54,939 bases of DNA from sequence record SRR31156797_10130. One strand, 5' to 3'. A program made the translations under genes and the position numbers. Below the pieces are notes generated by a model. The model did no database searches. It was given only the letters and a program-made list of their open reading frames with translations, and was not told the origin of the DNA. Of the stretch, positions 78 to 3,872 are shown piece by piece (position 1 is the stretch's first letter; each line of letters starts with the position of its first letter).

Positions 78-159
78 GCGGAAGTGGCGGAATGGCAGAC
101 GCGCACGCTTCAGGCGCGTGTGAGTTTATCTCGTGTGGGTTCAACTCCCATCTTCCGCA
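78..159 (+). tRNA. tRNA-Leu(CAG), CCA not encoded
   Basis: Acceptor GCGGAAG/CTTCCGC plus discriminator A; D arm GGCGGAATGGCAGACGC; anticodon stem CACGC/GCGTG with loop TTCAGGC; long variable arm GAG-TTTAT-CTC; T loop TTCAACT. Confidence 0.96.
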
Positions 160-2245: not shown

Positions 2246-2302
2246 TTTTTATCTAAAAAACAGGTAAATGACGTTTTTTGGTCTATTTCATGATTGTTAT
2301 AA

Positions 2303-2331
2303 AGTATACTATTGGTGTTTTTGGAAGTCAA
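2303..2331 (-). promoter_or_regulatory. SigA promoter of T-box/oppA
   Basis: TTGACT-17 bp-TATACT on the minus strand. Confidence 0.75.
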
Positions 2332-2392
2332 CAAGAATTGCGAATATTCAGTTTTTTATGATTTTTCTGGCAGACCTTTTTTTGCATCTTGC

Positions 2393-2421
2393 TTGCCTTT
2401 CATCACGTTCTTCTCTAGGAT
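2393..2421 (+). promoter_or_regulatory. Putative SigA promoter of DIP1984 gene
   Basis: TTGCCT(2393-2398)-17 bp-TAGGAT(2416-2421). Confidence 0.5.
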
Positions 2422-2467
2422 AAGAACTAGATAAGCTGTTCTCATTTGTAAAAAGGAGTGTGCCAAA

Positions 2468-2920
2468 ATGAAATTAGCAGAAGCGTTACTTTTAAGACGG
2501 GATTTGAACAATCGTCTGTTTCAATTACGTAACGAGATCTCTAGCAGTGTGTTAGTCCAAGAAGGCGATACCTTGGATCGTAGTATCACAGAATTGTTCA
2601 AGGAATACGATGAGATCAATCAACAATATTCAGAATTAGTCGTTGCCATCAATCGGAAAAATGCGACTGCCTCTTTAGCAGATAGTGCGTTATTGCTGAT
2701 GGAAGCACTAGAACAGCGAGAACAGCTGCGCCGCAAGCATGCACTGCTAACGCAAGCACTGGATGAAACCAAAGCAGCTCCCCGAATAGGTCGCAACGAA
2801 ATTCGACTGGTGCGTACGATCGATACAAAAACGCTAACGGAGCAATTGAATGCGACCGCCAAGCAGCTGCGAGAATTAGATGGAAAGATCCAACAAACCA
2901 ACTGGCTAGTCGATCTTTAA
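2468..2920 (+). CDS. DIP1984-family all-helical coiled-coil protein, function unknown
   Basis: Characteristic N-terminus MKLAEALLLR, VQEG motif, C-terminus LDGKIQQTNW; RBS AAAGGAG. Confidence 0.88.
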   Translation: MKLAEALLLRRDLNNRLFQLRNEISSSVLVQEGDTLDRSITELFKEYDEINQQYSELVVAINRKNATASLADSALLLMEALEQREQLRRKHALLTQALDETKAAPRIGRNEIRLVRTIDTKTLTEQLNATAKQLRELDGKIQQTNWLVDL

Positions 2921-2927
2921 TCAATAT

Positions 2928-3085
2928 GGGTGGGTGTCAAAGGCGAGCACAAAGCAGGTACAGGCTGATATGTACACTATGGAACGTCTGGCAGAGACGT
3001 AAACGTAACAACCACTGCTTACGAATCACAATCGTAACAATCACATTGTATTTTTTAGCGACCACGTGCTGATTTGACTGGATGG
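2928..3085 (+). ncRNA. Putative novel structured RNA in the 3' region of the DIP1984 gene
   Basis: Six mutually compatible helices including an end-to-end closing stem, two 12-nt repeats, and a downstream terminator (see findings). Confidence 0.65.
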
Positions 3086-3088
3086 GAA

Positions 3089-3123
3089 AAACCCTCTTCT
3101 TTTTTGAGAAGAGGGTTGTTTTT
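3089..3123 (+). terminator. Bidirectional intrinsic terminator
   Basis: AACCCTCTTCT/AGAAGAGGGTT hairpin with an A-tract before and a T-rich tract after, between convergent genes. Confidence 0.85.
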
Positions 3124-3155
3124 ATCGTATCCAGTCGTACATGGAGGCGGCTCTT

Positions 3156-3872
3156 TTACTGCGAAGCCTGCTGCTTGTTACTCACAGCGGAAGGACGCGC
3201 CAGAAACGCTTGCCCTTTCTCACTGCTCCAAAACTCCTTCATCAATGCCGTCAATCCCTCTTTGGTTTGATTGGCACCAAAGAAAGGACTGCCGGGTTCC
3301 AACATGATGCCATTAGCTAAAGCACCGATAGGAAAGGGATCAAAGCCGAAAGCGTCAACGATTTCGTCTGTCTGATCGAGGGCGGTTTGGTCATCACCAG
3401 CAATGGCGATGGCTTTTTTGGCAGTTCCTTGAGCAGCCGTTCTCGTCAGCAAGGATTCCTCTTGGATGTCGTGGTACCCCATATGATTGAATCCTTTGAC
3501 TACTTTACTTTGGGAAAAATAGCGTTGCACACGTTCCGAAGAAGTCTGCTCGATGGATGAGTATTCTGTTTCTTTGCCATCGACTTCCCACCAATAATTC
3601 ATGGCATCGATCACTAGCTTACCAGCCAAAGCTTCTGCCGGCAGCTGTTGGTACTTACTCAACGGAATGGCCAAAATGATCGTTTGAGCTTCCGCCATCA
3701 CTTCAGCGGCATTTTTTGCGATTGCTCCCGGAGCCAACACAGAAACGGACAAGGCGATTTTTTCTGCTGGCTTCGTACTAGCAATCAAGACCCGATAGCC
3801 CGCCTGGGCACCAAGATTTGCGAGCGCTAAGCCTAACTTGCCTGCGCCTAAAATACCGATGGTTTTAGGCAT
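3156..3872 (-). CDS. NADPH-dependent F420-reductase-like dinucleotide-binding oxidoreductase
   Basis: GILGAGKLG Rossmann motif, IDAMNY and VVKGFN motifs; overlaps the LLM gene stop; start could be 3872, 3878 or 3881. Confidence 0.85.
   Translation of the reverse strand: MPKTIGILGAGKLGLALANLGAQAGYRVLIASTKPAEKIALSVSVLAPGAIAKNAAEVMAEAQTIILAIPLSKYQQLPAEALAGKLVIDAMNYWWEVDGKETEYSSIEQTSSERVQRYFSQSKVVKGFNHMGYHDIQEESLLTRTAAQGTAKKAIAIAGDDQTALDQTDEIVDAFGFDPFPIGALANGIMLEPGSPFFGANQTKEGLTALMKEFWSSEKGQAFLARPSAVSNKQQASQ

Follow-up and report, generated by a model that had tools for sequence, protein, structure and literature searches.

Why does a structured RNA encoded just behind a small protein gene carry two nearly identical 12-nucleotide (nt) repeats? 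The question arises in a 54,939-nt stretch of DNA from sequence record SRR31156797_10130 (hereafter the window), in which a gene of the DIP1984 family (DUF6847; 2468–2920) is followed directly 3' of its stop codon by a structured RNA of about 144 nt and then by an intrinsic terminator at 3090–3123; the gene, the RNA and the parts of the RNA described below all lie on the plus strand. A sequence-only reading of this locus had picked out the two 12-mers and viewed them as single-stranded sites for protein binding or cleavage, as a template-like segment, or as parts of a conformational switch. Comparison of the RNA across bacterial phyla leads us to a different emphasis. Judged from aligned sequences, the 12-mers appear to be the version, peculiar to the Enterococcus casseliflavus lineage, of an array of short units ending in AC, each 12-mer being a doublet of adjacent units rather than one half of a stand-alone pair. 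Our favoured explanation, to which we assign a probability of roughly 45%, is that this tract acts as a fixed-length, multivalent, single-stranded platform for several copies of a partner, one per unit of about 7 nt, with the co-encoded DIP1984 protein as the candidate partner.

The 12-mer pair is real and confined to one lineage

The two copies, CGTAACAACCAC at 3004–3015 and CGTAACAATCAC at 3033–3044, are identical at 11 of 12 positions and lie 29 nt apart, with a partial AATCAC at 3024–3029 between them, as the sequence-only reading had reported. A repeat search extends the pair to 3001–3015 and 3030–3044 (13/15 identical); over 2850–3200 this 15-nt pair was the only repeat returned, with no tandem array, and the 14 nt following each copy are unrelated. 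Dinucleotide shuffling of the 163-nt RNA, repeated 2000 times, produced a pair of non-overlapping 12-mers differing at one position or none in 37 cases and a 15-mer repeat with up to two mismatches in 13; when the 66-nt tract (3000–3065) was shuffled by itself 2000 times, the corresponding counts were 9 and 4. The pair is real and, by a shuffle test applied post hoc, somewhat unlikely to have arisen by chance, though not extremely so.

Outside the E. casseliflavus group the exact 12-mer disappears. All four of the other Enterococcus species-level RNAs and the RNA of Desemzia are without it, other enterococci reading, for example, TTCAGCAATCAC and CGTATCCATTAC at the two repeat sites, and a 12-mer repeat of any kind (at most one mismatch) occurs in 4 of 52 distinct RNAs. 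A Deinococcales RNA holds one 12-mer pair in the same region at a lag of 27 nt, and shorter repeats in other lineages tend to recur at lags of 14–15, 21–22 and 27–30 nt. Constraint within the lineage could be gauged from two casseliflavus-group genomes that are distinct and have diverged (they supply four of five loci, as two pairs of identical rows). Compared with these relatives, the tract showed 0 changes in 66 nt and the RNA 0–2 in 163, while the gene showed 11–12 in 453 and the 160 nt after the terminator 9–21. Set against flanks that vary to this extent, the unchanged tract is therefore constrained in the casseliflavus lineage.

Units ending in AC recur every 7 nt across the family

The distant comparison drew on the best 80 of 558 confirmed DIP1984 loci, which cover many phyla, and the lattice analysis on 52 distinct RNAs anchored on the first base of P2', the 3' strand of helix P2. 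The array occupies the long G-poor strand between hairpin P4 and P2'. G content in the 50 nt before P2' is 15%, as against 27.6% in the remaining RNA, and is lower there in 50/52 RNAs. The most enriched 4-mers of the tract are GCAC, TCAC, TTAC, ACAA and ACCA, and the motif [GT][CT]AC occurs 3.25 times per 55-nt junction versus 1.0 in mononucleotide shuffles. Spacing is where the pattern becomes regular: successive YAC motifs lay 7 nt apart 27 times where 4.2 were expected, and 14 nt apart 14 times where 2.5 were expected, with YAC peaks at −9, −16, −23/−22, −30/−29, −37/−38, −44/−45, −52/−53, −59/−60 and −66 from P2'.

Lattice points defined by this spacing carried an AC within 1 nt in 23–38 of the 52 RNAs per unit, compared with 0–14 of 52 at off-phase points, and 268 of 356 AC dinucleotides fell in phase (expected share 0.45). 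The in-phase share ranged from 0.50 to 0.84 in all 12 clades. Period 7 was the strongest of the periods 4 to 12 in 31/52 RNAs and reached P < 0.05 individually in 21/52. Pooled over the RNAs the unit reads approximately A-N-N-K-N-A-C, with a nearly free base before the AC (unit position 5: A 0.29, C 0.32, G 0.17, T 0.22), and many RNAs become near-perfect arrays when cut into heptads; one from Planctomycetota reads CCCTAAC AATTTAC ATGTTAC ATCTGAC AAATTAC AATTAAC CACCAC. Close to P2', AC is present in 23/52 RNAs in the unit at −15 and in 33/52 in that at −8. An AC at −5 is found in 51/52, a count that is partly built in because scoring of the helix descriptor described below favoured matches with ACC upstream of P2'. 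The strand from P3' (the 3' strand of helix P3) to P2' measures 44–46 nt in 30 of the 33 RNAs with a locatable P3'. The array, its length and its register to P2' have been retained from one bacterial phylum to another, with drift in the letters that separate the ACs. Structure prediction places less pairing in the tract than in the rest of the RNA in 49/52 RNAs (0.54 versus 0.43), and the tract is best seen as mostly unpaired, probably with weak hairpins specific to individual lineages.

Cut into such units, the window tract (3001–3065) reads AAACGTAAC / AACCAC / TGCTTAC / GAATCAC / AATCGTAAC / AATCAC / ATTGTAT / TTTTTAGC / GACCAC. Copy 1 of the repeat comprises units 1 and 2, AAACGTAAC and AACCAC (3001–3015), with AC at −58 and −52 where the family centres are −58 and −51. 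It is followed by two heptads, TGCTTAC and GAATCAC (3016–3029), with AC at −45 and −38 (family centres −43 and −36), the latter heptad, unit 4, holding the partial AATCAC. Copy 2 comprises units 5 and 6, AATCGTAAC and AATCAC (3030–3044), with AC at −29 and −23 (family centres −29 and −22). The next two unit positions, ATTGTAT and TTTTTAGC (3045–3059), are degenerate, U-rich and without AC, and GACCAC (3060–3065; family consensus tACCAy) stands directly before P2'. All six ACs of the window lie within 0–2 nt of lattice points, and the 29-nt repeat period is 9+6+7+7 in unit lengths, the Enterococcus array being loose, with units of 6 to 9 nt. The casseliflavus lineage would then happen to hold two near-identical doublets four units apart. 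What had been expected of homologues, a short A/C-rich repeated tract, is present in nearly all of them as a G-poor tract of fixed length with AC units about 7 nt apart; the exact 12-mer is the part that is not kept.

The proposal that both copies are single-stranded is partly borne out by prediction. A partition function over 2935–3078 gives a mean probability of being unpaired of 0.63 for copy 1 and of 0.44 for copy 2. The minimum free energy (MFE) structure places copy 2 in two marginal hairpins of −3.1 and −0.9 kcal/mol, and copy 1 ends on C3015, the base with which the 3' strand of P3 begins. Copy 2 had also been described as exactly the loop of an ACAAT/ATTGT hairpin. ACAAT (3037–3041) belongs to copy 2, and copy 2 is therefore not exactly the loop, which consists of CAC (3042–3044) only.

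The RNA accompanies the gene

Around the nearest genome (G001), the DIP1984-family gene is present in 10 of 61 genomes and 3 of 33 genera, including 8/8 genomes of the genus. A model of the RNA, R1, detects it in the same 10 genomes, in single copy and beside the gene each time, and in none of the other 51; R1 was built from these relatives' own sequences, and the informative part of this result is that there are no extra and no orphan copies. When applied to the 80 distant loci, R1 gave 35 matches at E up to 10, 35/35 on the strand of the gene. Matches starting within 80 nt of the stop codon numbered 31 of 35, the exceptions being one locus (L088) and three weak matches (E above 4).

Further members were sought with a helix descriptor consisting of a 6-base-pair (bp) P1 with one mismatch allowed, RGYG, a 5-bp P2, 60–330 nt, P2', 1–3 nt and P1'. 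The descriptor is looser than a covariance model, and five poor matches were dropped (L024, L039, L046, L068 and L070); it fits 55 of 81 sources, namely the window and 54/80 of the other loci. The window itself reads GTCAAA, GGCG, AGCAC ... GACCAC, GTGCT, GA, TTTGAC directly after the DUF6847 gene and on the same strand. At least one hallmark of the RNA (a descriptor fit, an R1 match or the 3' tail GAGGGNGGG...GGG) was found in 71/80 loci, and the nine loci without one include one masked with N and one cut short.

The gene also travels on plasmids. Plasmid records with the gene number 341, of which 321 are from Acinetobacter, whose small plasmids commonly bear it; the records frequently label it 'septicolysin' and show a TonB-dependent receptor gene as its neighbour. 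On both plasmids examined, one of 46.6 kilobases (kb) from E. faecium (L092; 166 bits) and one of 8.7 kb from A. baumannii (L091), the gene is followed by the RNA. By the loose descriptor, the whole RNA is present in duplicate or triplicate, in tandem, behind the gene at four loci, three from Acinetobacter and one from Bacteroidota (L034 1712–2140; L035 1711–2479; L042 1713–2125; L077 1897–2218); other double descriptor matches are probably false.

An apparently abundant RNA species spans both repeat copies in one metatranscriptome

RNA runs were examined as assembled contigs. Run X1, an ant-gut metatranscriptome, contains a 144-nt contig that covers exactly 2935–3078 at a depth of 1618, about 24 times that of the contig over the gene (66.6), while the downstream contig has a depth of 161. 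Illumina adapter letters abut both ends of the 144-nt contig, and these ends coincide with the foot of P1, extending one base beyond P1 on the 5' side. No contig end falls inside 3004–3044, the 144-nt contig running through both repeat copies, although minor cleavage could go unseen in contigs. Runs X2, X3 and X5 each yielded a single long flat contig, uninformative on RNA ends. These data suggest an abundant, discrete 144-nt species that carries both repeat copies and lacks the G-tract flanks (2928–2934 and 3080–3086). Because it comes from one run of one study, and from contigs only, we count this species as a hint.

Architecture of the RNA and its flanks

Helices were derived with RNAalifold from nine Lactobacillales sequences, to which all percentages of paired cells for the window's own elements refer. 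Folding of 2918–3125, a stretch that includes the terminator, gave an MFE z-score of −3.39. Together with the contig of X1, this z-score points to a core RNA closed by P1 (2935–3078) as the candidate mature 144-nt species. Its closing helix pairs GTCAAA (P1 5' strand, 2936–2941) with 3073–3078, with 100% of cells paired and 3/6 pairs compensatory; across phyla the letters of P1 diverge widely yet remain complementary (e.g., GTCAAA/TTTGAC, ATACTG/CAGTAT and ACCCCG/CGGGGT). Inside P1, the internal loop GGCG (2942–2945) stands opposite GA (3071–3072). The form RGYG was part of the descriptor, so that its presence in 55/81 sources was required, whereas the strand opposite, left free in the search, reads GA, GG, AA or AT. 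A kink-turn reading of this P1/P2 loop was rejected, as its register leaves a C-C mismatch. P2 pairs AGCAC (2946–2950) with GTGCT (3066–3070), with 100% of cells paired and 4/5 pairs compensatory, and across phyla it covaries to AGTAT/ATACT, AGCGT/ACGCT and AATGC/GCATT. The 3' side of the core (3066–3078) is thus made up of the P2 3' strand GTGCT, the loop GA and the P1 3' strand TTTGAC.

Within this frame, P3 pairs AGCAG (2953–2957) with CTGCT (3015–3019), with 97.8% of cells paired and no covariation because its sequence is invariant. The nearly invariant hairpin P3a, GTACA-GGCTGATA-TGTAC (2958–2975; 95.5% of cells paired), follows, and then hairpin P4, CGTCT-GGCAG-AGACG (2985–2999; 100% paired, 4/5 pairs compensatory), at the position taken in distant members by a T-arm. 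These distant members carry the T-arm sequence GTGGTTCGAWTCCAC after a GGGC/GCCC pseudoknot where Enterococcus has P3a and P4. They form a subgroup (A7: L019, L023, L028, L036, L037, L062, L070, L074 and L082) from Tissierellia, Clostridia and Streptococcus with a transfer RNA (tRNA)-like module at alignment columns 72–122, in which a GACTT/AAGTC hairpin forms a pseudoknot between its loop GGGC and a GCCC further downstream, with 100% of cells paired and 3/4 pairs changed on both sides.

P1 is flanked by G-tracts. In the window the 5' flank reads GGGTGGG (2928–2934; invariant but for one T/C column in the nine relatives) and lies just before the contig end at 2935; the 3' flank reads GGATGGG (3080–3086) and is outside the abundant species, giving 2+2 tracts. 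At 36/80 loci (L018–L089) the arrangement is 1+3, with GGTAGC on the 5' side and a 3' tail GAGGGNGGG(N2-5)GGG about 170–300 nt after the gene. The tail string GAGGGNGGG also forms the core of the G-quadruplex sequence of human c-MYC, and among the published matches listed for the conserved G-rich motif there were only G-quadruplex papers on human DNA. The tracts around P1 may be a G-quadruplex or a processing signal. The intrinsic terminator (3090–3123) has a 12-bp stem and a T run, and a second, weaker terminator-like hairpin lies just past it at 3133–3152 on the plus strand. A promoter scan of low sensitivity assigned a plus-strand promoter to neither the gene nor the RNA. A 48-amino-acid (aa) open reading frame that overlaps the RNA (2926–3072, plus strand) was rejected as coding: its ATG is missing in 4/5 other species-level forms and retained only in a near-identical casseliflavus-group relative (L002), and a 1-nt indel at alignment column 12 shifts its frame in other relatives.

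The DIP1984-family protein and its neighbourhood

The gene encodes a 150-aa protein that matches NCBIfam NF038048 at 1.2e-42 and Pfam PF20935 (DUF6847) at 4.7e-38 and whose closest named record, at 99% protein identity, is from Enterococcus casseliflavus. An AlphaFold model (AF2) predicts four helices with a confidence score (pLDDT) of 95.8. The protein matches PDB entry 3kdq at 2.4e-15; this entry, an uncharacterised Corynebacterium diphtheriae protein, is the sole related solved structure and was the only Foldseek match to the model below E 0.001, giving no functional lead. Besides DUF6847, Pfam gave only NIT (E 3.7e-4), PADLOC gave nothing below E 0.55, and searches of PHROGs and the ESM Atlas yielded no functional lead. 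Conserved residues of the family include R10, R23, R84, R106, R135, N62, N65, Q31, Q142, N145 and W146.

Three neighbouring genes in the window were scanned and encode an OppA-like binding protein, an NADP oxidoreductase and an LLM monooxygenase; the next gene after the RNA is on the opposite strand. Neighbours vary among the inspected loci, with the DIP1984 gene alone constant. tRNA genes were seen upstream of the gene in the window (78–159, about 2.3 kb upstream), in L057 (208–1157, a cluster of five tRNAs with a sub-threshold tRNA-Sec-like match) and in L063 (916–989, one tRNA), which may be coincidence.

The RNA is absent from Rfam 15 and, as far as the searches reach, from print. At the gathering score, Rfam 15 matched only the tRNA at 78–159 in the whole window; over 2300–3250 at E up to 10 it gave chance-level matches (E 1.3–8.9), mostly on the terminator, and for 20 distant loci at E up to 0.1 it gave only genuine tRNA genes elsewhere and nothing on the RNA. 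The excerpts returned from full-text literature under DIP1984, DUF6847, PF20935 and IPR047741 contain no account of an associated RNA, and those for 'septicolysin', mostly Acinetobacter plasmid annotation among the matches listed, likewise mention none.

Possible functions of the array

We favour the platform explanation, in which partner copies bound along the tract would yield a stable RNA-protein particle by a mechanism akin to that of HutP or TRAP sites, without homology to either. The suggestion of repeated protein-binding sites made for the 12-mers survives in a sharper form, with 7-nt AC units as the candidate sites, because homologues keep AC-ending units about 7 nt apart; the cleavage that went with it finds no echo in the only RNA species seen, which spans both copies uncut. 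Several observations weigh against the platform. Its link to the protein is one of gene neighbourhood, with protein binding putative; the DIP1984 family is mildly acidic (median isoelectric point 5.7, above 7 in 6/41), and Foldseek matches its fold to no known RNA-binding protein. The RNA ends derive from the contigs of one run. One set of 52 sequences served both to define the lattice centres and to count the ACs on them, these relatives are not independent of one another, and mononucleotide shuffles keep base composition only, ignoring dinucleotide bias. The pattern is also poorest where the question arose: the 7-nt periodicity of the window by itself has P = 0.41, its last two unit positions are U-rich and lack AC, period 7 is best in 0/5 Enterococcus RNAs, and in-phase ACs there number only 16/27. 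Finally, the tract of AT-rich members can form two small hairpins (81–83% of cells paired) and may be partly structured.

A more specific version, which we advance tentatively, makes the RNA the scaffold of an unrecognised RNA-protein particle, found in bacteria and also on plasmids, with some eight NAC motifs at a 7-nt pitch, borne on a tRNA-like core closed by a helix, serving as a ruler that sets the number of four-helix DIP1984 protomers. The protomers would sit side by side, like a nucleocapsid protein covering a fixed number of bases per subunit, and the 12-mer pair of the window would amount to two pairs of protomer sites. Bolder still, the NAC triplets beside the T-arm might serve as docking sites for the four queuosine-family tRNAs, by way of their GUN anticodons.

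The plainest alternative to a platform is a passive linker, an unstructured strand of fixed length that joins P3 to P2, in which G-depletion and AC richness only keep the strand unpaired and the 12-mer pair is a functionless accident of the lineage, produced by local duplication or convergence. Much of what was found for the repeat suits such a strand: its length is kept at 44–46 nt and G is depleted, the exact 12-mer is missing from four other Enterococcus species-level RNAs and from Desemzia, any 12-mer repeat is present in 4/52 RNAs, and the repeat is only moderately unlikely (37/2000 shuffles). We nevertheless consider it unlikely, as a linker predicts neither a 7-nt AC lattice fixed to P2' in 12 clades nor 0/66 substitutions in the tract where flanks show 6–13%, and the shorter repeats elsewhere recur near multiples of 7 (14–15, 21–22 and 27–30). 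Exposed NAC triplets could instead pair with RNA, either with mRNAs in the manner of small RNA (sRNA) seeds or with the GUN anticodons of tRNA-Asn, tRNA-Asp, tRNA-His and tRNA-Tyr. The nearly free base before AC supplies all four NAC triplets; the tract has little G and is predicted to be less paired than the remaining RNA in 49/52 cases; distant members possess the T-arm GTGGTTCGAWTCCAC and an anticodon-arm-like hairpin; and in L057 and L063 the gene has tRNA genes close by on its upstream side. Contacts of three bases, however, would need a protein or a stacking platform to be strong enough, no complementary partner was found, no search for one having been made, sRNA seeds tend to be conserved in sequence rather than periodic, and the equation of NAC with GUN (queuosine) tRNAs is general knowledge rather than a result of this analysis, which leaves docking by pairing a decidedly weak contender.

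Proposals tied to the 12-mers themselves fare worse. The complementarities behind a conformational switch do exist, TTACGA (3019–3024) with TCGTAA (3032–3037) and GCTGA (2964–2968) with TTAGC (3055–3059) among them, and TTACG (3019–3023) and ATTGT (3045–3049) can each pair with either copy of CGTAACAA to give alternative folds. The MFE structure uses TACGA/TCGTA and ACAAT/ATTGT, and two small hairpins are possible in the T-arm group at comparable positions (81–83% of cells paired). Conservation points the other way: among the nine Lactobacillales relatives ACAAT/ATTGT has 42% and TTACG/CGTAA 53% of cells paired, compared with 96–100% for the conserved helices, and both are fully paired only in the two casseliflavus-group rows. 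The GCTGA/TTAGC pseudoknot has 69% of cells paired, with its central C-G in only 2/9. The two hairpin helices contribute no more than −3.1 and −0.9 kcal/mol, they are impossible in G-poor high-GC members, and the T-arm group lacks convincing covariation, with hardly any double changes. A switch is improbable on these counts. Likeness to a type III toxin-antitoxin system, with each repeat bound and cut by the neighbouring protein, draws on a module of one small protein gene and one adjacent RNA that is patchily distributed (3/33 genera) and present on 341 plasmids (321 from Acinetobacter). We judge it very improbable, since long repeats in tandem are missing, the RNA (2935–3078) lies 3' of the gene (2468–2920) with the terminator 3' of the RNA, the protein has no ToxN/AbiQ-type family match and an empty PADLOC result, the abundant X1 species keeps both copies intact, and the gene occurs in 8/8 genomes of the genus, unlike a typical toxin-antitoxin module. 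Least credible of all is a template copied by a polymerase in the style of a retron, a defence-associated reverse transcriptase (DRT) or telomerase: a short repeated tract within a structured scaffold would suit it, but none of the three scanned neighbour genes is a reverse transcriptase, the rest of the window lying outside that scan, and only the DIP1984 gene is constant across the inspected loci.

Relation to known systems and implications

The closest functional parallel to the platform is HutP. In the Bacillus subtilis hut terminator RNA (PMC2425495), the HutP hexamer has two RNA-binding faces, with one subunit per XAG motif, and its sites hold XAG three times with 4-nt sequence-independent spacers, giving a 7-nt period on single-stranded RNA. 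The likeness lies in a short motif repeated every 7 nt on single-stranded RNA, here as a family-wide AC lattice with a candidate partner only. The differences are that the motif here is NAC and not XAG, with 8–9 lattice positions and not 3+3, and that this appears to be a stable processed RNA 3' of the candidate partner's gene and not a leader terminator, with a four-helix protein unrelated to HutP. The family does show at least three copies of a 2–3-nt motif at fixed spacing on predicted unpaired RNA, as HutP and TRAP sites do. Pfam and NCBIfam assign the partner to DUF6847/DIP1984 only and Foldseek to 3kdq only, none of them to the HutP or TRAP family, and the RNA, lying 3' of the gene, is not a 5' leader with a controlled terminator.

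TRAP recognises (G/U)AG repeats of the trp leader, and CsrB/RsmZ and CrcZ act as protein sponges whose motifs lie in hairpin loops and are not known to follow a fixed lattice. The DIP1984-associated RNA would resemble them in using a very short motif, present many times on a single RNA, to engage many subunits or copies of one protein; it differs in motifs, spacings and proteins, and here unit number and register are fixed with respect to a helix. Type III antitoxin RNAs (ToxI, AntiQ and CptI) consist of tandem repeats of about 34–36 nt upstream of an endoribonuclease toxin, which cuts them into units. An RNA beside a single small protein gene and internal repetition are shared with them, while long tandem repeats are missing, the RNA is 3' of the gene and the partner has no ToxN/AbiQ/CptN match. 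Bacterial Y RNAs, such as YrlA with its partner Rsr, are stable RNAs of about 100–200 nt with a terminal helix and, in many, a tRNA-like T-arm module, encoded beside the presumed partner. Here too a helix-closed RNA stands beside a presumed partner gene and bears a T-arm in distant members; no match in sequence or structure was found, the protein family is another one, and Y RNAs are not known to have a heptad array. The likeness to RNAs that bind protein through periodic motifs is functional only, and membership of the type III, HutP/TRAP, retron-type and Rfam families fails on the features tested.

The wider point is that a structured RNA has been kept beside one gene without an assigned role across Bacillota, Chloroflexota, Planctomycetota, Pseudomonadota, Deinococcota and Bacteroidota. 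For the window, the comparison is a corrective, in that the 12-mers appear to be a local expression of a periodicity that is deeper and older. The NAC heptad lattice gives the RNA-protein pair a concrete hypothesis, specifying a number of protomers, the bases they would contact, their spacing and the nucleotides to mutate. If the particle is real, it would be a new RNA-protein system; if the binding is true, the tract would represent a new kind of multivalent RNA platform and provide a first function for DUF6847.

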